Origin: Isurus oxyrinchus
Taxonomy: Eukaryota
Direction of reading: 5' to 3'
NCBI GenBank assembly: GCA_026770705.1
Contig: JANJGN010000034.1
Span: 4,898,001-4,962,000, forward strand
DNA: 64,000 nt
Shown here: positions 2,850 to 53,250 of the stretch, in pieces
Layout: the number at the start of each line of letters is the position of its first letter
Position numbering within the stretch: the stretch's first letter is position 1
Notes under the pieces: generated by a model
What the model saw: the letters and a program-made list of their open reading frames with translations, nothing else
Database searches by the model: none
Told to the model about the DNA's origin: nothing
Translations under genes and position numbers: made by a program

Positions 2850-3289
2850 TCACCATTTTGCCTATTGTGAACAGTCAAAGGGAAATGTTGTTTGATATAA
2901 TTCATCTTGGGCCCTAAAATACATAATATATGCTAGTTAATATGATATCTGCCGTCGGGAAATGCTGGGACATGTAAAGGAATATTCTGGTATGTTCAAA
3001 CAAAGAACATGTCGTTTTATGAAAGGAAATTTTGTTTGGCAGAATCATTATGATTACATTTTATGTTCGGACTGGTAAAATAAAGGGAAATAAGTAGATT
3101 TCGCCTTTCTGGGCTTCATAACTGGATTATTTAACGTGCCACAAAAAAGCTCCAAATACAAGATAAAGGCTGGTGGAGTTAACAGACAAGTAAAACGGTG
3201 TATCCACAAAACAGCATCTTACACTTCCCGTTCTACAATCAATGAAGTCTAAGTGAATACAGTGCTGAGGCAAACTGACAGTTTATTTA
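2850..3289 (+). mobile_element. Highly decayed CR1-like LINE RT fragment
   Basis: Residual similarity to CR1 ORF2 (gttttatgaaaggaaattttgtttg..., aagataaaggctggtggag); no ORF. Confidence 0.4.
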
Positions 3290-4723
3290 TATTAATGAGT
3301 ATGATGAATACACCGAAAATGGTATGCCAAGTTGTGAACAATGTAAGATTATATGTAGATGTATGATTTGAGGTGTTAAGTGCATTAAACAAAGAATGCA
3401 TGTTGGTGACAAGAACACATCAGTACGGTAAGTAATAGGTTAGTTAGCAGTTTTTCCTTTCCATCTGACTCAACACTAGGCCATTCATCCAAAATATTTC
3501 GTAAGAAAATAAACATCCTGATAGTTTTCTTGGTCGAGTTACAGTCTAAAGAAGAGAATGAACACAGGGAAGTTTTAGGTTCATTAATTAAACTTAACAG
3601 GTTAAACAAGATATTAACTAGAATTTTATGGAGTTAATGAAATGTTTTCCCTCGGCCAAAGGAGTTGAAATCTCTTGACTCAAATTGCTGGTCAATGTGT
3701 GATTTTCAGGACGTTTCAAGTGGCTTGGGTTACAAAAACATTATCTGTGGTTGCTTGAGTTGGAGCTCATAACTTCCGAGATCCTGGGAATCAGGAATGC
3801 CTGCGTAGCATCATGGAGTATGATAGATTCTCATGCCAAAAATTGAAGGGATTTGTCAGCCCACAGAGAGCGATAGTTTATAGAGACATGGTGGTCAGTC
3901 AAAAGAGCATAAAAAAGCACAAAGTGAAGTATTTCTGACACCTTTCTCTCGGAACTGGAGAATGTTGTTAGTAACAGGACCCTGTTCTTGGCATTGGGGG
4001 CTCAAACATGTTTAGCAGTTAACCTTGAAGAGTCCAACTGCAAGCGTCTTAGGACATTTCATTATGATAGCGATATTAATGACTTTTTTAAAGACTTTTT
4101 TATGCTCTTTTGACTGACCACCATGTCTCTATAAACTATCGCTCTCTGTGGGCTGACAACCTCCTTCAATTTTTGGCATGAGAATCTATCATACTGCATG
4201 ATGCTACGCAGGCATTCCTGATTCCCAGGATCTCGGAAGTTATGAGCTCCAACTCAAGCAACCACAGATAATGTTTTTGTAACCCAAGCCACTTGAAACG
4301 TCCTGAATATCACACATTGACCAGCAATTTGAGTCAAGAGATTTCAGCTCCTTTGGCCGAGGGAAAACATTTCATTAACTCCATAAAATTCTAGTTAATA
4401 TCTTGTTTAACCTGTTAAGTTTAATTAATGAACCTAAAACTTCCCTGTGTTCATTCTCTTCTTTTAGACTGTAACTCGACCAAGAAAACTATCAGGATGT
4501 TTATTTTCTTACGAAATATTTTGGATGAATGGCCTAGTGTTGAGTCAGATGGAAAGGAAAAACTGCTAACTAACCTATTACTTACCGTACTGATGTGTTC
4601 TTGTCACCAACATGCATTCTTTGTTTAATGCACTTAACACCTCAAATCATACATCTACATATAATCTTACATTGTTCACAACTTGGCATACCATTTTCGG
4701 TGTATTCATCAGACTCATTAATA
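3290..4723. repeat. Long inverted repeat: arms ~3290-3917 and ~4095-4723, spacer ~177 bp
   Basis: Arms are reverse complements with only scattered mismatches; the same peptide appears in ORFs 3385..3609(-) and 4428..4628(+). Confidence 0.95.
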
Positions 4724-5199
4724 ATAATTATATAACTGCCTTTGTGAATCCCGAATGCAGTTACCTTCCTCTATGTTTCCAATGGAAATGACATCTGGAG
4801 AGGCATGCGGGAAATCTGCGGGGCAGTATGATATCTTTGCTGAAAGACCTATTTCCTAAAAACATATTTTGATAGCTGTTGGGCTTTATCAGTAACATTC
4901 AGTGCCGTAATGGGAAAGGTGGCATGTAGAGACTATTAATCCACTCTTTCAGGATTCCTCAAATTGCGGGTCGTTCAGGAATGCATAACTAAGACCATAC
5001 GTGTGATGATTAATTGGCAATGTTCATGGTGAGTGAGAGGAGCATTCATATTATTGGGGGGTATTGACAACGCTTAGAGCAGGACATTGGCAATCGGTCA
5101 CACACATTGCACCTATGGGTCCTGGGGCCTATGTAATCAGGAATACTTTTACTCTCTTAGTTAGAAAGGGTTTACGTTGAATTTCCAAATTGTTCGTTA

Positions 5200-10077: not shown

Positions 10078-10594
10078 TGTGGTATGATGTGGTTTCTTTG
10101 ATGGGCGGATCACAGGAGAATCAGGTATCAGTTACGTGCATTTATTCGAGCAATTGCACGGGGGCACTATCTCAGTGCAACCTGAGGCACTGCTCTGTTA
10201 AACTACTAGTGTTCATCATATTTATAAATTTTTGGTCACGTACAAGAACAGTTTCCAGATTTCGAACCTGTGAACATACATGTTTACATTAAACTTACAA
10301 GTTTGATTTCTCTATTTTCTTCTCACCAAGGCAGAGACCCTCTCTCATACCTAAACTAAGATAAGACCGTCTGCTCTTTCCCTATCTGCTGTAAACAGGC
10401 TCAATTTTAGTTGTTTTCCAAACTAAAGCTCCAATGTAACTCTCAATATTCCCAATCTAACATATTTACAAATGTTTAGATTTCTGCCTGTCCAGACTGA
10501 CCTTTAATGGTTAACTGCTTATGCAGAAAGGTTCTGCCTGTTTGGCTTTTTAAGTACTGATTCCATTCAATAAATTTATGCCTGCACGCATTCA
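10078..10594 (-). repeat. 3' LTR of ERV
   Basis: Direct repeat of ~18476-19040; TG...CA ends; minus-strand AATAAA at 10141-10146 and TATA-like motif near 10220. Confidence 0.85.
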
Positions 10595-10607
10595 TTTTTT
10601 TCCCCTC
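10595..10607 (-). other. Polypurine tract
   Basis: Minus-strand GAGGGGAAAAAAA directly before the TG of the 3' LTR. Confidence 0.75.
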
Positions 10608-10847
10608 GTATGTCCCTTGCCTTAGCCCAAGTTATCCAACTACAGTGGTGTTGTATGCTCCCCCTTTCCCAGCCCAACGCCCCCTCACCCCCGCCCCCCA
10701 CCAAAAAAAACGTTATGCACTGTTACCAATTGATGCTGGTCATTTATTCAGCTTTGTCAGGTATAGGCTATGGGTACTGGTCAAACCATCCGTATCGCCT
10801 GGTCCTGTAATCCGAAACTCTGGCTAACCAAATTCCTACTCCACTGA

Positions 10848-12700
10848 CTAAAACTCCTCCAATGTCACCTTTTTTTGTATTCTCCGGGTGCGAAGAAGGA
10901 AGTATGTTAAATACATAATCAATATTATCTGAAGTATAACTAGTACATCGGAGATAATCTGAATACACGTCAGAATCTGTACGTTTGAGCCACAATGCCA
11001 CGGGTCCTCCCCCCATGTAGAATAGTGTATTTGTTCAATATGTTTTTAAGGCTCTATCCCTTTCCTGCAGTGTATACTAACTTTTGCATATCTGCTGAGC
11101 CTGTCTCTGAATTGCACTGAGATGCTCTGGTAATAGCGAATTTCATAGGAGAATTGGTTAAAATACTCTTTCAGGTTATCCTTAAGACTTTCCTTAAGCT
11201 GAATAGTAGTCGTTCCTCTCTTGTAAATTTCAACCAGTTCCCCCCCCCCCCCCCCCCCCACCCCCCCCCCCCCCTTGCTGGCACCTGTGGATGCAAGCAC
11301 ACCTACTTGATTGTAGGTGGGGCATATCTGGTTATCTCCTTCAGGAATATTTCCTGCCATGCGGTAATGCAATATCTCCCATTCCCTGTATATGCAACGT
11401 GGCAAAGCTCTTTAGCAGCCATTATAGTTTCAATTGACAGTTTGTGGGTGCTTTAAATCACACTTCGTTTCCTGTGTCTCATATACCGGCTGTGCACATG
11501 CTATTGCAGTGACTTCTATCCTGCACCCTTCTAATGTGGCAATATCTATGTTTCCTTCTATGTGTACTGCGTAAGGCCGAATAACGTGATACTTAATATA
11601 GTAATTCCCCCATATAACAACAATAATTTCTACTCTATATAACGTCCTGCAGGGTGTTGAGATAGGTATGACAGGCGTTAGTAATACAATGCCTATCAAC
11701 ATATTCCAATGCGCTATAATTTCAACATTCATTCTCTATATGCAAGTAAAAACTCTAAGTTGGTAACAGGTAAATTCATGAATCTCGTATCGTGAGAGTT
11801 TCAATAAATGCTCATTAGTTACTCAGATATGAACGACCCCTTTAATAATCTGTCTTCTATTTTCTCGGGCTTGTTCCAACGCCGAAGTTCCCTACATGCT
11901 GCAAAAATGATTTCTCCTGCTTCATCTGAAATAGTTTCCCTATTTCAAGCAGCTTATTGATAGTCCCTGCATGGCTTTAAAGCACGGTAACCAGACTTTG
12001 AATTAACCATGTTATGTCCTGTTCCGTATCAAACTGTCTATCCTGGATACTCTTTCCCCACCTAAAATCTCCTTAATCCTAAAGCTCAGGATAAGGGAAT
12101 TTTGATCTATAGTTGCTATATCAATGGAATTAACTAATGAAGTATCTGTATTGAATAACATGGCAGCGTCATTTAGCAGGCTGCGCTTATCTCGTTCCCC
12201 ATCTGTGCATGATCACATCTCACCCATAAACCAGTCTTCTTCAGCCATCAAGTCTCTCGTCAGAGCCGTACATAGTTTTTGGGTGTCGTTTTGGCACCAC
12301 TCTGCTGTCCGACAAGGGATATATTCAAGACTACGGGTAGATTATCGTATAAAAATTTATTTTGGTTGATAAATACATGTCTATTTGTTGGCCCTGGATA
12401 CATGATCGGACAAGCTGGGTCAGTTGGTGGAGGGGTAACCGTGGGCTGGGGATGGGGGGGACGGGGGAGAGGGGATGGTGGACGGAGGATGGTACTGGTA
12501 TCGGTATCTTCCCTTCGAAAGATCAACCACTTCCATCTTTTGTCACCGCTCTTTTCCCAAGTCGATATACTATCCTTCGTGCTACACATGTTCCATTTGG
12601 AATCTCCGACATGAGAATGAGTAACAATGTTGCGTGTTTTTGCACATGTTCAATGAAAACGGCTTCCTACCGTCAAGCCAAAGCCGAACTGCCCAACACC
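10848..12700 (-). pseudogene. env: env, frameshifted; class I fusion glycoprotein with early cleavage site
   Basis: RDKR at 12183-12194 followed by SLLNDAAMLFNTDTSLVNSIDIATID; Cys-rich region 11300-11730; TM IQIISDVLVILQIILIMYLTYFLL at ~10890-10965. Confidence 0.8.
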
Positions 12701-13049
12701 CTCCTTATACTTAAGACACACGGTAGTTAGATTTGGGAATATGAGCACCATCTTTTGCATCTGTCAACCACTGACTTCTCATGAAATGATGCCTTAAATG
12801 ACGCATGCACATACTACAATACAAGAGCTTTTGTGCTACTACTGTTACAGTGATTATTCCCCGTTGTGAGGCACAATCGGCCTTGCCTCTGCTGTATCAA
12901 TGTCCCTCCGGTGGTGCAGTTGTTGCCATCATCACCATGCTCACGAGGGTTGACATTCTTGTTAACATTCTCTGAACTCAAGCAGCTAGGCATCCCAGGC
13001 CGGTTGTTGAATTTATTCGTTTGGGTAAAAATCAGTTTGTTAAATGCTT

Positions 13050-16000
13050 CAGCTGTGACCCGTGTTTACAGCACCACTTGCTCATCACGTCCACTCATGT
13101 GCACGTATCACTGGCCATTTTTACTTCATATGTTCCCAGCTAGCTGGTTGCAGACCCAGGGTTTCCGGGGGAAATCTTGACATTTACTTTCTCCCCCACG
13201 CCATGCGATTTGGCTTGATCTTATCTGACCTGCCCTTCCAAGTCCCATAAAATCTGATCATCCCTGGCTTCCTTCTTTAGTCTGTGAAGCTGTTGAAACA
13301 GCTCCCTGATGAGTTGGCTCATTATCTCCCTTACTGGACCCATCTCCTCGTTGCAAGTTATAACATATCCCAGCAACCTCATTGGTCTCCCTGCCATCAA
13401 CTCATAAGTGGTTAACACCATTATTCTTTGAGTTTTGAGGGCTGCCCCATAAGGATGTTGGCAATAAGCCTGCCCAACCTTGCTTTGTATTCTTGATGGC
13501 ATTTAACAATGCTCCTTTTAGGGTCCTATTCATTTGTTCAACCATGCCTGAGCTATGTGCATGACAAGGGGCATGGACCATCTGTTTAATTCATAGCCAC
13601 TTACATATTAATTTCTGTCCACGCCCTGAAAAATGAGCACCTTGGTCTGAATCCAACTGCAAGCGTATTCCTCAGTGTGGAATCACTACTTCTAACATTT
13701 TTGTGCCACAGTTGTGGATGAGCCATTCCCTGTGGGGAAAGCCTTTACACTTCTTGAGAATTGATCATAATAACCAGGAAGCTTTTTTTCCCCCTCCACT
13801 TAACATGAGGGGCACTTTAAAGTCTACTTTTACCTGTTTCTATGGACCAATCGATCGGGGTTGGTGTGACATGCGAAATTCCTGATGGGCCTACCTGGAT
13901 TAAGTTGGGCACATATCAGTCATTGTTGACATTATTTAGATACACCTCTTCCGATTGCCCACCACCATCAGCATCTGCCCAACCGCCCAAACAGGGCTTC
14001 CCTTCCATGATGCCCGTTGCCATGGAATATTCTCATAAGTTTCCGTTGATTACAATGAGATGCTTCCAGCTTCTCGACTTTTTGTCACACCCCATTCGTT
14101 TTTTTTTCCATAGCACCATACCACTTCCACTGTTCTCGTTGCACTTTCCTAGCATCTTTGTGTAAATTCGCTACCTTTATTTCGTCCAGACCCACAGATA
14201 CTTTGGCCGGTAGCTGGGCCTCTTTACCTGATTTATCCACATGCTGGTTGCCCAGCTCGATGGAGTCTGGTACCTTTTGATGGACTTTAACTTGAATTAC
14301 TGCTTCTTCTATGTGTTGCTTAGCAGCTTCAACTATGTCTCTAATTATTTCTCTATGGTGTACCGGTCCTCCTCCCTGCCGTAAATAGCGCCTGCGGCTC
14401 CAACCTGTTACATAGTCATGCATTAATCTGAAGACTTATCTACTGTCTATATAAATATTAACCCTTTTCCATTGTGCTATATGTTGAGCCTCTTTAGTGC
14501 CACTAACTCTCATACTTGAGCTGATAAATTACCCAGCAATTTTCTCCAATGCACAATCTGACCTTCCCCATCCATTATCACCAACCAGTGGAACTATATT
14601 CACATATCTACCGGACCCGTCCACGAACAAGGGCAGTTCTGCACCTTCTAAATCCTTTTCCCGCAGTGCCCTTGGATTCTCCTCGTTTACCTCCCGGAAG
14701 CACTTATGTTCGAATTTGTTGACAAATTCCTTTCCATCCAGCAGCAGCCCTTCTGCTGGTTTAGTCCCTAAATCGTGAAGTATTACAATCAATTTATTTT
14801 GTGGCAGTTACATTGCTACCCATGCTGCTCCACTACTGCCTTAAATTGTTCTTAACTTTCCCGTGTTAAGCAATACTGCTATAGTGTGTCTGTTGTGTAA
14901 TATCAGGTCCCCTGTCATCACTATCAGCTCAGAAAGCCTCGTAGCTGAGGACATGCAGTCAATTGCTGCTATGGACCAAGTCATCAAGCTGGCTACAGGC
15001 GACTGTCCTGTTGATAAATTCTTTACAGTTCTCATTCGATGGCCATGCTCTTGGGTCACCACCGCACTGTAAATTCCCCCCTTGTAATGGGTTTAGAGAT
15101 TAACTAACTTCCCTATACAGGGCAACCCTAAAGTTGGCACTTGGGTAATTCAATAATGGCTTATATGTTTCACCAACCCATTCTCTTGCCTTCTCCCCGT
15201 AACCTTTGATCCCCTTACCAATCAAGAACCTATTTATCTCGGCCTTCAATGCACTCAGTGACCTGTCTTCCACAGCCTTCTGTGGCAATGAACTCCATCG
15301 ATTCACCACTCTTGGCTATAGAAGTTTCTCATCATCTCTGTCCCGAGAGGTCTTCCCTTTATTCTGATGCTGTGCCCTCGGGTCCTAGTATCTTCCCCCA
15401 TTCTCTACAATCCTGCGACACTTTCCCCCATTTTATCAATTATTGCATTGGTGCTGCCCACATCGAAACATCCTCCATAAAATCCCTACAGTAATTAACC
15501 CATCCAATGATTTGCCTAACCCCTCAGACACGTACAGTTCTTCGCATGCATTCTATAGCTTTTTTCCGACTATGGGGAATTTATTTTTTCCCCTGTGATA
15601 TTACATAACCCAAATACTGCACCTGCCGTTTTCCCAGCTGAGGTTTCTTTATACTAAGTTTAAATACAGCCATTTCCAATAATTTCAGAATATGCAAGAG
15701 CGCCCCTATGTGTCCTTTTGTTTCGTCTGAGGCAATCAAAACATCATCCAGGTATTGGTTCACTAGGCTGCACTCATCAATTTCTGCGCAACTCAATGAA
15801 TCGCACATCACCTGGTGAGAAGTATTTGGACTATTGTGGAAACCCTGAGGCAATCGTATCCGAATGTCTTCTCTGTACCCGATCATAAAAGCAAATTAAT
15901 CCTGGGACCCCTCGTACAATGGTATCGCCCAAAATGCTTCAGCTGCGTCTAGGATCGAAAAGATTGTGCGGTTCGGCCCTCGATTATTGAAGATAGTGGT

Positions 16001-16720
16001 AGGCCTTGCAACTATTGGCTATTACCTCGGTGCTATCTAATTTAAAGCTGTATAGTCAATCGTTAATCATTATGAATCGTCCGGTAACTGACCGGGCCAA
16101 ATAACGGAATTGGTGATGGACTGAGACCTTCTCCCTATCCCATCCTTCTCTGAGCTCCGTATTATGGCCCTCACCGCATCCCAAGGCTCTGATTTAGTGG
16201 GTTACTGTTTCCTGGAAAGGTGTTCCAAACCAGGAATATCTATGGGGATCATATTAAACTTACCACAGTCGTGTATACACCTTGCATAAATTCAGGCAAA
16301 TTGCCAACACAGGACCCCGTATTCCCCGCGTTGTCTCCATTGGACTCTGTTGCTGCTGCCACTGCATAGGGAAATCGTCAATCCATTCTTCTAAAGTGGA
16401 CCCTGCATAATAAACTTACGATTGTGTGGGTTAATTACTGCCCCAAATCTTTTTAGATTCTCCAGCCCCATAATAAGACCCACATTAGTTTGTCCTACCC
16501 AAATGCGAATAGGACAACCAAACTGCCTATTTATAAGGGGATAACCACACTTTGTCTCACCCACTTGTGTATTCTGGTTATTCCTCTCATTTTGATGGTA
16601 ACGCTGGTAGTTGGTAGTTCCAGGTTCATAATTGAAATGGACGCCCCTGTGTCAGTTAGAATGCCGCAAAACCGCCCCCCAAGCAGTGCGTCAACAAACA
16701 TCTGTGTGCCCCCGGTCCTG
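13050..16720 (-). pseudogene. pol: pro-pol (protease, RT, RNase H, integrase), multiple stops and frameshifts
   Basis: ILTDTGASIS at ~16642-16653; LTIDYTALN; RLPQGFHNSP; QYLDDVLI at 15743-15754; LFVDGS ~14620; GNQHVD; LDSDQGAHF ~13645; SSGMVEQMNRTLK. Confidence 0.9.
15150..15390 (-). mobile_element. CR1-like LINE 3' fragment nested in ERV pol
   Basis: VNRWSSLPQKAVE...KAEINRFLIGKGIKGYGEKA, a CR1 ORF2 C-terminus, interrupts pol. Confidence 0.85.
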
Positions 16721-16799
16721 CATATCCCAAAGGCCAGCTATGGCTGGCTTGACAGGTCCCGGAATAGCCTCCCAGCATCGGCATCCTCGGGAATACCTG

Positions 16800-18056
16800 G
16801 GGCCCTGTCCTTCTCGCCCCCCTCCTGAAGCCCAACAATCACTCCGGAGCTGCCTTGCCTTCGTACAATTAGTACATTGCAGCCCCATTTCTGTCAGTCC
16901 CCTCTGTCTGCTCCAACATTGTGTGGCTATATGCCCCTCCCATCTAGTTTGAAAAAAGTCAAACCTCCGATTATCCGGAGCCACAGGAGCCATGGTTTTA
17001 TGCCCCTGTGCCTCCATCTCCGTGGCCCAGTGCATAATATCCGTATAATTCCTTCCTAATGAGAGGCACATTCTGAAAACGTTCTGGTGTTCGATATGAA
17101 CCCTTCCTTCAAAATTTTCAAGAAGATTTCATCATCCCACAGAGGATGCAGCTGTCATGAACATTGCACATATGTTTCCCAATTTCGCTCCAAATACTCT
17201 ATTATGGATTTACTTTTCCTCTGTACCACGAAAGTTATTCACCAAAAATCTGTCTCCCTCCCCCAAGGGCTTTCCTAACTGGTCTCTCAAACTCCCTTTG
17301 CAGGTTTTCTCCCAGGTTTCACTCAGTCACCACTTCTAAACTGTAGTGGTAATCTTCCCCAAGTATGCCATTGGCATGTAGCATTCACCAATACGTGAAT
17401 ATCGAGGGGATGCATTCCATGGAAATCTTGCATATCCCGCAGTTTGGTTCAAAAATTTGAATTTTTTTTTGCTGAGTTCACGTCTCGGCAATTCTTTAAG
17501 CAAAACCTGCCTTCCCCCCGGCAGAATTTTATGTGCTTAACCTTCTCTAATTCCCTCTCAAATTCCTCATCCACTCCCCATCTCCAGGACCCCTCACTCC
17601 CTTCAGGTTCTAATTCATCTCTCCTGGCTTTACTTTTCTTAACCGTTATTGCTATAGGGGCTATGGGATTCAACGTGCACATTGGAGTGGTTGGTTTATA
17701 TAAGGCCGAAACTGCCTCAGCTCCTTCAAAAGTTTCTACTTCGGAGCTTTCCTGCTCTTGATCAGTGTCAATGCAGGCTGCTGCTGTTGCCACTATTCTG
17801 ATCTATCCTGGATCTGACTTTTTCTCTCTCTAATCAACTGGAATTTACTGTTAACCCTTCTGCACAACTCAAGCTAAATTGTGATGATAATCATCATCCT
17901 TTCTATTCCTTATCTTTTATTTTTGCTCTAAACACCACTGTTTTTGTTCTCTGGGTGTTCCCTGTGTGTTCCACAGAATCTTCTCCATATCTGTGATTAC
18001 TTTTCACTGATGTTCCGCTATGAACCTTGTAATGGAATCTCCGGCTTTACAGCCAT
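16800..18056 (-). pseudogene. gag: gag, disrupted
   Basis: Candidate ATG at 18056; zinc-knuckle remnants ..EGHIATQCW and CTNCTKARQLRSDCW upstream of the protease. Confidence 0.7.
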
Positions 18057-18475
18057 GTTACTTGGCGCTATGTTGTTTCCCTGATTGCATTCTGCTGCTA
18101 TTTATCTCTGAACGGTACGTTCACATGATCCTAAAAACTTAGTTATCTGAGGTAAGTATATGCGGTGTCACTGAGGTCTGGCCTCCATACAAGGCTTCGG
18201 CCAAAGTTATATTTCAAACTCTTACCCGCTTGCACCTTTCCACCCTCTTCTAACAGGGTTCTGATGCGCCTGCGCAGCTTTGGTCCCGCTAGCTCCCCCT
18301 GCACTGCTCCGCCTATTACACCTGGCCCCTCCTTTCTTCTGTCCTGAGTCCTCATTGATACTTGACTGGACCGTTCGTGGGTAGGCTTGCTGCACTAACT
18401 ACGGGTGTTAAATGAACATACTCAACCACTGTGCAGAGCAGCCCTGAGCGTCCATTCCAAGCATCCTGACAACTA

Positions 18476-19040
18476 TGCAAAATTGATGTGGTGTCTGTGA
18501 TGAACGGACCACAGGAGACTCAGGTAGACGTTGTGATCGTTTATTCAAGCAATTGCAAGGGGGCGGGGGGGGCACTCTCTCAATGCAGCTCCACATGGTA
18601 CTCTGCGAAACTACAAGTGTTAATCATATGTGTGCATTATTGGTCATGTACAAGAAAAGTTCCAAGATTTCAATGTTGCGAACATATAGGTTTAAGTTTA
18701 ACTTAAAAGTCTGATGTTCCCATTTTGTTCTCACCCAGGCAGGGACAGTCCCTCGTACTTAAACTAGGACAAAACCAACTGTTCTTTCCGTATCTGCTGT
18801 ACACAGGCTAAACCTTAGTTGTTTTCCAAACTAAGGCTCCAGTCTGACTCCCAAAACACCAAATCCAGCATATTTAACTTCTTCCTCGTCCAATATGGCC
18901 TTGCTGTTTCTCACAAGCACCAGAAATGTGGAAGCTTTAGACTTCTTTCTCTCCAGCCTGTGCTTTAACTGTACGCTGCTTACGCAGATTGGTTGGATTT
19001 TTAAGTATTGATACCCTTCAATAAATTCTTGTTGCATCCA
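18476..19040 (-). repeat. 5' LTR of ERV
   Basis: Direct repeat of 10078-10594 (tgatgtggtgtctgtgatgaacggaccacaggagactcaggta...); exact ends uncertain by a few bp. Confidence 0.85.
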
Positions 19041-48680: not shown

Positions 48681-51011
48681 GTAAGAATTTCATGCAATGG
48701 CACTTTTTTATGTCAGGGTGCTGATCCTGTAGATTCCCGTTTGCGACCAATCATAATATACAAACTCACCAGAATTATTACAATCCATGGTAGAAATATC
48801 TGGAGGTTGTAATATTAGACGAACAGCATTATTTTGCTCGTCATACCAAAAAAATTGGACAGTGCTATGGAGCGATTGGGGAATCAGAGAATGCCCTACT
48901 AGAGAAGAAAAATGTTAAAACGGGCTTAATGAAGACATTTGTCGTTATGAGTAGTTTACTGGAGATAATTTGCTGTCCTTGGTAAATTATACATTGGCGA
49001 TAATTCATCGATTTAAGGTATTTGTAAAAATACCTGGGGGAAGTGAAAATAACTTCCCCAGACTGGAAGCTGTTAGTTACTTGAATTCGCAGTCAGGAAA
49101 TATTGTTGAGTAGGATTGATCTTAAAGACAATTACACCAAGCCCTGAAGGCAGTGAATTTCCCGGGCTCAGGGACATAAAATGTGGTCATGCTGCAAAGA
49201 AGCAATCATGAAGAACGCGATTGTGCTATTTTGAGCAACTTCAGAACATTCCCTAAAATCGCATGCATAGTTTACAATGCATAGACAAGGCAACAGTCAT
49301 ACACACACAAAAAATGATTCCAGGTAATTCGAATCTTGTTCTTCAACACACTGCTTCAAATCACCCGCTAATTTTACAATTGTCTTCATAAAAGATTGTT
49401 CAAATTATTTGCATTCAGTTTAACTCTCGAAAAGTATATAGGTACATCACATGGCTGCAAAATGATTTGCATAGGGAGGGAGAATGCATTCCTAATGCAT
49501 TTTGGTTATCTCCCGAACTCAAAACTGCCTTCTGTGGACAAATTGATTCTGAACCCAGTCGCTAATCTCTTACGATCGATCATTTTTTTCTTATTTAAAT
49601 TAAACTGTGAAAAGTTTTTTACGTGAAGTATTATGTGTTGGAATGAAATTTACGATGTTAGTTGAATCCTGGGAAGGCGTCCGTTGGGGGCGGGGGGATT
49701 TGAAGAGACATATAAAAGTGCATAGTGCTACATAACATTTCGGACACAGGAAAAACGATTCGGCCTATCGAGTCACTCCTTGCATCGAAGGTTCTCTCCT
49801 TTCATGCGTCATACTTCCTCGCCTACACATATAATTATAATCATATTCTGTTTTCCCTGGGAAATTTACGTATATTGTCTTTAAATGCATACATGTTATT
49901 CCATTAGTCTGGTACCTATGGGAGCTTCTTCCACATTCATAAAAGTGTATCTTAAACTACATTTTCTCAGAATTCCATGTTAGTTTTATTGGTGTCATTG
50001 TTATACGTTTGACATCTCGTCTTGTTCTTCACCAGAATGGAAAAATCCTCTTTGAATTCTTTGCAGCAAGATCCACATGTTCTTTAAAACTCCACTAGAT
50101 CATCCCTTAGACAGACAGTGAATATGGGAAGGAGGGAGATAAAAAAAATGTTTCATTTTTTTCCCTGAAGCATTTACCAAGCTTCTCAAGTATCTTCTGT
50201 TATCCCTCGCCAATGTGTTGATTACAGAATTGTTTAAAGTTAACAGCTGCTGTTACGCTCATGTCTGTTATCTGAATGAATAACGGGACTGTTGATATTC
50301 GACCCCATTCCCCATCATCATCTCATGTATTATTCTATGAAAAAAATATACGTTCATACAAATGAACATGCGATTTAGGAGGAGAGTAGGCCAGAAGGCA
50401 CCTCGAGCATGCTGCGAAATTCGACAAGATTACTGTTGATCTGATGGTGGCTTCAACTCCTCATTTATTCTACACTTGACACCATCAATTCACTTATTGG
50501 TCAATCATCTATTCATCCCTACGTTAACCAAAATTGAATCAGTCTCTGCTGATAACGTGAAGAGTATTCCAATGATTTACGAAAATCTTGGATAGCAAAA
50601 AATATTGTCTTCTCCATCATGAATGGGAGGCCCATTATTTTCAAACTAAGAGTCTTATTTCAAGACTCTCCAACAAGGAGACATCACCATTCAATACCCA
50701 TTCTGTCATGTCCCTTCAGTGTATTTTATGTTTCAATGGCGTCACGTCTCAATCGTCTAATTCCGATGTGCACTTTCTCCAAGGGCAGTAGTGTCAATTT
50801 CTCAAAACTACCTACTTATTTCAAGTTCATGGTCACAGTATAAATTCACTGATTTTTTGCTTCTCTCCTCCTAATGTCTTGATATCTTGCACAAAGTTGC
50901 CGACTAGAACTGGACACAATACTCCAGTTAAGGAGAAAACCGTGTATTTAACGATTTTTCCATAACCACCTTAAGCGTGTAGTTTGTGTGCCTTTGAATG
51001 CAACATAGGTT

Positions 51012-53250
51012 TCTCCTACCTATCCCTGGACCATGACGCCACTGCTGAACATCAAGCCACTTTTTCCATGACTATCACTGACCTCATCTCCTCAAGAAAT
51101 CTTCGTTCCACAGCTTCCAAACTAAGAGTTGCCCAACCTCGGATGGCCCGCTTCTATCTCCTACCCAAAATCCACAAAGAGAATTGCCCCAGTGGACAGT
51201 TCATGTCAGCATGCACCTGTCCCACTGAACTCATTTCTCGTTATCTTGACTCCTTTCTCTCTCCCCTTGTCCAGTCCCTTCCCACCTACATCCTTAGTTC
51301 CTCTGACACCTTACGTCACATCAACAATTTCCAGTTCCCTAGCCCCAAATGCTTCCACTTCACCATGGACGTACAATGCCTCTACATCTCCATCCCCCAG
51401 CAGGATGGTATGAGGGCCCTTAGCTTCTTCATCGAACAGAGGCCCGAACCATTCCCATCCAGCACTACTCTCCTCCATCTGGCTGAACTTGTTCTCAAAC
51501 TGAACACTTTCTCTTTCAACTCCTCTCAGTTTCTCCAAATAAAAGGTGTGGTATGGTTACCCGCATGGGCCCCAGCTGTACCTGCCTCTTCAATCGGTAT
51601 GTGGAAAATTCCTTGGACCAGTGCTACTCCAGCCCCCTTCCACAACTCTTTATCTGGTACATCGATGATTACTTTGTTGCTGCTTCATGCTCTCATCGAG
51701 ACCTGCAAAAATCTAATAATTTTGCTTCCAATCTCCACCCATCCAACATTTTCACATGGTCCATCTCTGACATTTTTCTTCCCTTCCTTGATCTCTCTGT
51801 CTCAATTTCTGGTGATAGACTGTCCACCAATATCTATTACAAGCCTACCGACTCCCACAGCTACCTCAACTACAGGTCCGCTCATCCCGCTTCCTTTAAG
51901 GACTCCATCCGATTCTCTCAATACCTTCGCCTCCATCGCATCTGTTCTGATGATGATAACTTCAATAACAGTTCCACTGACATGCCCTACTCTTACTCAA
52001 CAGAGATTTTCCACCCACGGTCATTGACATTGTCCTCCTTCGTGTCCAGACCATCTCCCGCACATCCACCCTTATGTATTCTCCTCCCTCCCAGAAACAT
52101 GATAGGGTCCCCCTTGTCCTCACTTATCACCCCAACAGCTTCGACATTCAAAGGACCATCCTTTGCCATTTCGGCCAACTCAAGCATGATGCCTCAACCA
52201 AACACATCTTCCCTTCCCCCCCCCACCCCCCATGGCGGCATTCCGTAGGGATCATTACATCCAGGACACCCTGGTCCACTCATCCATTACCCCCTATTCC
52301 TCAAAACCACCTGTGCCACCACCCCATGCACACTCAAAAGATGCAACACCTGCCCCTTCACTTCCTCTGTCCTCAGCGTCCAAGGGCCCCAACTCTCCTT
52401 TCAAGTGAAGCAACATTTCAGTTGTATTTCCCCCAAATTAGTCTACTGCATTTGTTGCTCCCAATGTAGTGTCCTCTACATTGGAGAGACCAAACGTAAA
52501 CTGGGCGACCACTTTGCGTAACACCAGTGGTTTGTCCACAAGAATGACACAAACCTCCCTGTTGCTTGCCATTTTAACACTCCACACTGCTCTCTTGTCC
52601 ACATGCCTGTGCTTGGCTTGCTGCATTGTTCCACTGAAGCCCAAAGTAAGGTGAAGGAACAGAACCTCGTCTTCTGACTTGGCACTTTGCAGCCTTCTGT
52701 ACTGAATATTGATTTCAACAACTTTAGGTCTTGAATTCACTCCTCCATTCCAATCCCCTTTCTATTTCTTCACCCTTCCCTTTTTTACTAATCATTTATA
52801 TGGATTTTCCTTTCCCACGTATGTCTATTATTTTTAAAAATGTTATGCACTGCTAGTCTTCCACCCAACCTCCACTAGAGTTGTTCCTTGAGTCCCCTAC
52901 CATCTATTCTTAATTAGCACATTCGTTCTGATAACATCACCACCTTCAACAACTCTGTGTTCTTTTGTTCTTTTGTCTGTGACTTCTTTTGATTATCTGC
53001 TCCTATCACTGCTTGCTTGTCACTACAACCACACCACCCCCACCCCCACTTCTCTCCCCCCACACAACCTCCCCTCCACCTTAAACCAGCTTATATTGCA
53101 CCCCTCTCCTTATATTCACTCAGTTCTGTTGAAGTGTCATGAGCACTAGAAACATCAACTCTTTTCTTCTCCACCGATGCTGCCAGACCTGCTGAGTTTT
53201 TCTAGGTAATTCTGTTGTTGGTTTGGATTTCCAGCATCTGCAGTTTGTTG
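51012..53250 (+). mobile_element. Penelope-like retroelement, 5'-truncated (RT + GIY-YIG), frameshifted; inserted in an older minus-strand LINE
   Basis: RFYLLPKIHK, FTMDVQCLY, MGPS, WYIDDY, FLDLSV, IYYKPTDSHSYL; VYCICCSQCSVLYIGETKRKLGDHF. Confidence 0.92.

Follow-up and report, generated by a model that had tools for sequence, protein, structure and literature searches.

The provirus in the window

The DNA analysed here, a stretch of 64,000 nucleotides (the window), is part of contig C34 of a genome of 4.98 Gb (G000), and this genome was also searched for related copies. On its minus strand, at about 10085-18876, the window carries a provirus with two LTRs and the order LTR-gag-pro-pol-env-LTR (Table 1). 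The first sign of the LTRs was a repeat pair at 10193-10468 and 18601-18876, which extends to both LTRs. The 5' LTR aligns only to the last ~390 of the 510 bp of the 3' LTR, and because its start is lost, no target-site duplications were identified. The exact 15-mer core of the primer-binding site is present upstream of several family copies and also in all three retrieved stretches called tRNA-Ser(AGA). Among 13 window fragments compared with Pfam, the reverse transcriptase (RT) alone was clearly matched. In the related sequences the remaining domains are better preserved: the intact relative P0001 contains RT_RNaseH_2, RNase_H, Integrase_H2C2, and rve, and the gag of family copy L029 encodes two CCHC zinc knuckles (zf-CCHC x2, E 3e-10, Pfam). 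The repeat within pol (query 908-1153) matches unrelated loci at 89-90% and is lacking in the family copies.

Table 1. Parts of the provirus and their positions in the window.
Feature	Position	Strand	Remarks
5' LTR	18484..18876	-	5' part missing or replaced; ends CA
Primer-binding site	18463..18480	-	14/18 bases match the 3' end of tRNA-Ser(AGA)
Decayed gag	16745..18036	-	located by tblastn with shark relative P0002; zinc-knuckle remnants only
Decayed protease	16391..16737	-	RVP E 0.1 in the window, E 0.003 in family copy L029
Reverse transcriptase	15527..16252	-	one frame, 8 stops; RVT_1 E 8e-12
Interspersed repeat, ~245 bp, inside pol	15148..15393	.	element inserted into pol
Decayed tether + RNase H + integrase	13060..15147	-	mapped via intact relative P0001
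env, N-terminal extension	12413..12968	-	signal-like start, ~160-aa domain, Pro/Thr linker
env, F2-like segment	12183..12412	-	ends in furin-type site RDKR
env, F1-like subunit	10848..12182	-	fusion-peptide/heptad helix, Cys-rich beta domains, membrane-proximal helix, anchor, short tail
Polypurine tract	10595..10607	-	abuts the 3' LTR
3' LTR	10085..10594	-	TG...CA, ~510 bp

The provirus is a dead endogenous retrovirus, and this copy makes no protein. Its env has 12 in-register stops, at least six frame changes, and a poly-G expansion at 11240-11273. An earlier note on this DNA had described a complete two-LTR element; the two LTRs are there, but the partial 5' LTR, the stops in env and RT, and the repeat in pol show that it is not complete. 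The LTRs share 77% identity over 383 nt (K2P 0.27), which would correspond to about 60 million years at the mammalian rate used in PMC4422223 and to a far greater age at the slower shark rate that the same study assumes. Because of this slower rate, all that we claim is an age of at least tens of millions of years.

The family is large. A DNA search of the genome gave 983 candidates (40 scored, 73-79% identity), and a protein-level search gave 2846 first-look env candidates (150 scored), so that the features of env are far beyond chance. In about 25 of 40 scored env copies, the matches jump from ~209 to 488-521, i.e., these copies share a deletion of ~280-310 nt in the N-terminal extension, which suggests a sub-family that spread after loss of the presumed receptor domain.

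Two further elements were seen in the window. A large, near-perfect inverted repeat at 3285-4728 has arms of 266 and 370 nt, complementary at 98-99%, around a core of 177 nt and resembles a young foldback or MITE-type element. On the plus strand at 50975-52245, two overlapping open frames of 350 and 253 aa contain a YIDD motif; they had no Pfam match at E 0.01 and by their motifs presumably resemble a Penelope-type RT.

The env region of the window copy

The earlier note had reported an env with the layout of a paramyxo/pneumovirus F protein and had named several motifs, all of which were found in the minus-strand translation: RDKR at about 12194-12183, SLLNDAAMLFNTDTSLVNSIDIATIDQ immediately after it, GCRIEVTAIACAQPVYETQETKC, and, in a different frame, HVAYTGNGRYCIT. 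The transmembrane segment was confirmed as a hydrophobic anchor at around 10955-10880. About 445 codons separate the furin site from the stop at 10848, in agreement with the ectodomain of some 400 codons described before. The distance of the furin site from the N-terminus had to be corrected from ~170 to ~260 codons, as env starts near 12968 rather than at 12700; in an unbroken paralogue, 284 codons precede the site. This paralogue contains neither CX6CC nor CXXC, consistent with the reported lack of a gamma-type motif. A gamma-type (class I ERV) Env was rejected on this ground and on two others: TLV_coat, which does match control gamma-type envs, was absent from 44 of 44 env family members, and gamma envs reached only background-level scores against the env profile.

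An unbroken paralogue and its predicted fold

One of the 150 scored env copies is unbroken. It is located on the minus strand of contig C40 (G000 C40:8928251-8930422; L051:763-2934; L066) and is called C40 env below. The search for intact copies proposed earlier thus yielded an intact env but not an intact provirus, since the pol of this copy is broken. The frame of 727 codons has a Met at codon 4, giving a protein of 724 aa with RDKR at 281-284, 18 Cys, and a single strong hydrophobic anchor near residue 690. It was used unaltered, as a natural sequence, for fold prediction.

With a 44-row alignment, AlphaFold gave a model of C40 env with a mean pLDDT of 57 and a pTM of 0.40; pLDDT was ~70-88 over most of residues 201-590 and below 50 for residues 1-178. 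The single-sequence prediction had a pLDDT of 34, and a fold search on that model is meaningless. In a Foldseek search of the PDB with the alignment-based model, the best match was RSV F (E 3e-11), 245 matches had E ≤0.001, and all PDB matches listed were paramyxo/pneumovirus F proteins. VIA-align superimposed the model on hPIV3 F with Z 12.3 (363 aligned residues, rmsd 10.7), the alignment spanning residues 210-666 of the model and 26-485 of the chain, i.e., the whole F0 ectodomain, and on Langya F with Z 12.3 (320 aligned, rmsd 5.6); for foamy Env, Z was 8.6. The BFVD matches included F-type proteins of fish filovirus, lispivirus, and baculovirus, the Envs of walleye epidermal hyperplasia virus 1 (2e-10) and walleye dermal sarcoma virus (1.5e-8), and feline foamy virus Env (3.9e-6). 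Residues ~203-670 of the paralogue are therefore predicted to adopt an F fold, in a model of middling confidence with a large whole-chain rmsd on F, and the protein is predicted to be an almost bare F0 preceded by an N-terminal extension of ~200 aa. For the window env, which shares 45-49% amino-acid identity with this paralogue, the prediction backs the F-like layout claimed before.

Like the F proteins of RSV, hPIV3, NDV, and the henipaviruses, C40 env would have a short F2, a furin cut, and a long F1. Unlike them, it has the N-terminal extension and a retroviral context, and identity to F is 8-13%. The extension gave a weak V-set match in two of 44 family members (E 0.045). Neither Fusion_gly (PF00523) nor Foamy_virus_ENV of Pfam matched any of the 44 family members, and PDB sequence searches with env and the env profile gave nothing below E 0.2. 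The proposed check against Fusion_gly hence came out positive for structure (F proteins in Foldseek, unbroken paralogue) and negative for sequence (0/44). A PF00523 search of the genome gave nine matches, and the eight translations listed are tandem heptad-like repeats and not env. Long tandem arrays with a 21-bp period on C2643 and at C6:11.55-11.56 Mb (L016-L020, L022-L024) are open in several phases, which accounts for these false matches.

Relatives of the env family

A HMMER search with the unbroken env against 1.84 billion proteins found 42 relatives, while a word-indexed search gave none among 7902 candidates. The named relatives come from sharks (Heterodontus, Mustelus, Chiloscyllium, Pristiophorus, Heptranchias) and frogs (Pelodytes, Mantella, Xenopus). 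As the closest named relatives are shark proteins, a cartilaginous-fish host, as assumed in the earlier note, is likely. Full-length open env relatives are P0037 (Chiloscyllium), P0041 (Pelodytes), and the P0070 cluster of 16 members (Mantella); the Mantella set appears young and multi-copy.

The env profile matched the TM region of all foamy Env ORFs compared (13 of 13), with whole-ORF E-values from 9.5e-8 to 2.9. In hhalign, the env of L068, a 10,688-nt record that we take by its length and layout to be snakehead retrovirus, aligned to the env family at 85% (E 5.8e-6, 348 columns). Judged by these profile comparisons, the env family is homologous both to the Env of foamy viruses and to that of the snakehead-like virus.

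Foamy Env has an F fold, with an N-terminal membrane anchor and a receptor domain of 330 aa within the core (PMC11468914). It shares with the family studied here the F-type core and a homologous TM subunit (E 9.5e-8; Z 8.6) and differs in that its receptor domain lies inside the core; in the family, by contrast, the extra domain stands ahead of the core, and the RT falls outside the foamy viruses. The earlier note had set a match to TLV_coat or foamy env against its reading; TLV_coat is missing and homology to foamy Env is present, but because foamy Env is itself F-folded, foamy env versus F is no true dichotomy. Since foamy Env has this fold and the walleye epsilonretrovirus Envs match as well, the F fold is no marker of lokiretroviruses either.

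Phylogenetic position of the reverse transcriptase

An RT tree was calculated with LG+G4 from 41 of 68 collected rows (27 were left out) and 231 columns, and a mixture-model tree from 40 rows, leaving out one long ERV-L-like row. The window RT was entered with X at its eight stops. The references were foamy and gamma/epsilon-type genomes, L068, Ty3/Gypsy outgroups, and loki-type proteins from fish, coelacanth, and frog, which were assigned by the similarity of their motifs to the published alignment and not by name; the sampling included no beta-, lenti-, or alpharetroviruses, fish foamy-like ERVs, or walleye viruses.

In the LG+G4 tree the window RT belonged to a clade of seven rows (98/94) together with two copies from the same genome, a Heterodontus protein, and three further relatives, and this clade was placed inside a branch (100/97) with foamy viruses, L068, and class I viruses, with the loki-type rows outside. 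The mixture model gave the same split between classical and loki-type rows at 100/98, the base of the classical branch being an open fork. Among PDB structures the RT scored best against foamy RT (137 bits), followed by MLV (115), HIV-2 (79), and Ty3 (76). Among 15 IMG/VR loci, L068 was the best match (E 3e-55, 39%), compared with 1e-40 for gamma types. A Ty3/Gypsy element (Metaviridae) was rejected in view of the RT trees, the PDB scores, and the tether plus RNase H of relative P0001. Taken together, these sequence comparisons place the window family as a basal classical retrovirus, pairwise nearest to the snakehead group known from sharks, of which it may be a member.

We give an even chance to the view that the family truly belongs to the snakehead-retrovirus clade (clade Huo, class III) and thus merely adds a member to a group known in sharks. 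L068 is the best viral match not only for RT but also for the Gag of shark relative P0002 (E 6e-11), and its env is homologous; Gag zinc knuckles and a tRNA-Ser primer site fit as well. SnRV-like ERVs are known from the elephant shark (CmiERV lineage I, PMC4422223), and clade Huo has hosts in every major lineage of vertebrates (Xu et al., 2018; PMC6001957). The likeness of the family to this clade, taken via L068, thus extends over RT, Gag, zinc-knuckle context, and env core. Against membership, L068 grouped with the family in neither tree, a constrained clade of the window RT with L068 and P0011 was borderline rejected (p-AU 0.0485, LG+G4), and the integrase scored low against L068 (76 bits). 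The two also differ in layout: L068 has an env of ~1130 aa and one knuckle versus 724 aa and two knuckles here, and its long integrase-side insert and 3' accessory ORFs were not seen in the family. The genome holds a second ERV family (L097-L104) with LP(Q/H)GFHNS RTs and 42-50% identity to L068; these RTs are nearer to L068 than to the window family.

That the family represents a foamy-like (clade Tu) ERV of cartilaginous fish appears improbable. Foamy viruses provided the best PDB RT matches and the top score of the env profile, and a constrained grouping of the window RT with them was not rejected (p-AU 0.11). Endogenous foamy viruses of cartilaginous fish are reportedly, by its title, the subject of a published paper, which we counted in favour of this view. 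In neither tree, however, did the family group with foamy viruses, and its Gag has CCHC knuckles (zf-CCHC x2 in L029), which foamy Gag is not known to have. Its env of 724 aa also begins with a signal-like stretch and has nothing inserted between the F2-like strands and the furin site, in contrast to the foamy Env of ~990 aa (PMC11468914).

The earlier note had called the element lokiretrovirus-like, which would make it the first lokiretrovirus in a cartilaginous fish. This label did not hold and in our view has next to no chance of being right. Resemblance to lokiretroviruses lies in the F-related env with RxKR site, heptad, and anchor, the tether plus RNase H, and the two LTRs (Wang and Han, 2021; PMC7947760), and by eye in a short motif where the F core begins. 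Lokiretroviral integrase groups with CGIN1/NYNRIN; in the family, the P0001 integrase gave BLAST scores of 102-113 bits against loki-type and 77-97 bits against foamy or gamma sequences, but scores against P0008, P0007, P0011, and L070 were higher still (119-187 bits). To our knowledge, the dual RNase H (tether plus RNase H) is common to all retroviruses. Constraining the window RT to the loki-type clade cost 64 log-likelihood units (p-AU 1e-6). The family copies have the RT motifs LPQGF(H)NSP and QYVDD, unlike all published Loki rows compared, which have PFGY and no Q before YVDD (PMC7947760 supplement). In env, ~200 extra residues precede the F core, compared with ~118 residues before the furin site in Loki-Xtr Env, and no smc gene was seen. 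An IMG/VR scan with loki-type P0014 gave no match. The best eight of 64 scored matches of the genome to loki-type Pol were nearer to SnRV-like RTs than to loki, in line with the original screen, which covered just six chondrichthyan genomes with none positive (PMC7947760); its small number leaves some room for a first case. On the RT sequences, the loki reading is refuted unless the loki reference rows are mislabelled.

C40 env as a candidate host gene

The provirus that contains C40 env adjoins H2B, H3, and H1 histone genes. Its LTRs are 85% alike over 413 aligned bases (K2P 0.17), and its gag-pol has many stops and frame changes, whereas env is unbroken. By comparison, all 26 other env copies examined by tblastn had at least two frame changes and 1-12 stops (stops being overcounted). 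Among 40 scored paralogues, none exceeded 89% identity to C40 env over a long match.

Private single-base changes were counted in triples and expressed as the ratio of amino-acid-changing to silent changes (N/S). For C40 env, N/S was 0.46 compared with 0.79-2.26 in 27 other copies, and 0.68 compared with 1.37-2.41 in the eight closest full-length paralogues (Fisher p 5e-4), on a private branch that includes any time as a replicating virus. C40 env had 43 private silent changes and no stops, whereas these eight paralogues had 17-34 silent changes and 4-9 stops each. The RT of the same provirus had an N/S of 2.09, with stops (p 0.024 versus its own env). Among 2846 candidates, the expected number of open frames surviving by chance ranges from 0.001 (14.75 breaks per copy) to 0.16 (7 stops and 2.8 frame changes), and intactness is therefore only suggestive, while the N/S deficit carries the weight. 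This deficit of amino-acid changes within a decayed provirus makes C40 env a candidate host-domesticated F-type envelope.

In public DNA runs, one organism gave a near-exact match to the C40 locus. Runs of a second organism contained pieces of the C40 flank and pol with ~96% identity (115 differences in ~3140 bases of eight listed pieces), which is consistent with an insertion older than the split of the two organisms; among the listed pieces, none bridges the LTR-flank junction. One C40 env contig of the second organism has a compensating pair of one-base gaps, and the share of env words found there was 0.39, a value to which paralogues can contribute. Two presumed-RNA runs gave short, mostly mismatched C40 pieces and were uninformative on expression.

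Whether C40 env is a host gene that purifying selection has maintained over tens of millions of years, derived from a basal classical lineage and built as a nearly bare F0 with an N-terminal receptor domain, is in our judgement evenly balanced. A somewhat doubtful but serious alternative is that C40 env survived by chance, or was renewed when it recombined late with a relative that was still replicating, and has no host role. Thousands of copies (2846 candidates) offer many chances of survival, and C40 has a distinct U3, so that part of its synonymous excess may predate insertion. In the related species, two of three differences at single-copy depth change an amino acid, which would also fit the lack of a host role, though these are too few to weigh. 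Against this alternative, C40 env has the most private silent changes of the nine copies compared and yet no stop, the RT of its provirus decays like a pseudogene, and no near-identical donor was present among the 40 scored copies. For the candidate host gene, the co-opted foamy env genes of geckos provide a precedent, as there, too, an F-fold env is kept by the host under purifying selection (PMC6669660).

Discussion

Our overall reading is that the window holds a dead ERV whose pol is classical and not loki-type, that env is predicted to be of the class I F type, and that the C40 env is likely kept by its host; we consider this combination well supported. In the ancestral virus, the signal peptide would have directed Env into the secretory path, where it probably trimerised. 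By analogy with F and foamy biology, furin cleavage at RDKR would free the fusion peptide, and the long heptad helix would then spring out and, as in F, refold to form a six-helix bundle together with the membrane-proximal helix. The N-terminal extension of ~200 aa ahead of the F2-like segment probably bound the receptor. If C40 env serves the host, blocking of a receptor against the once-abundant family with its thousands of copies would be its most likely use; cell fusion in the manner of syncytins ranks below such interference. Many sharks are live-bearing.

Published env surveys of cartilaginous fish would miss the window family because of their queries and filters: PMC12813294 searched with syncytin TM sequences and filtered for CKS17 and CX5-7C, and bioRxiv 2021.11.23.469661 used gamma- and beta-type queries. 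In the literature searched, which lay mostly outside subscription journals, we found no description of the env of this family as F-like or of a co-opted F-type env in sharks. An F-type env on a classical, snakehead-adjacent RT thus appears as a variant for which this literature gave no description.

The Loki study left open four scenarios for the origin of retroviral Env (PMC7947760). An F-type env on a classical RT, homologous to the foamy and snakehead-like envs, favours the presence of the F type in the common ancestor. Should a basal classical lineage with a nearly bare F0 be confirmed, it would, together with the loki, foamy, snakehead-like, and walleye Envs, make the F fold the ancestral envelope of retroviruses, with the gamma/beta type as a later replacement. 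By itself, the window locus is a single dead copy in a large family. The most valuable lead is the open C40 env, which may be a domesticated fusogen or entry blocker of sharks and can be tested as such.
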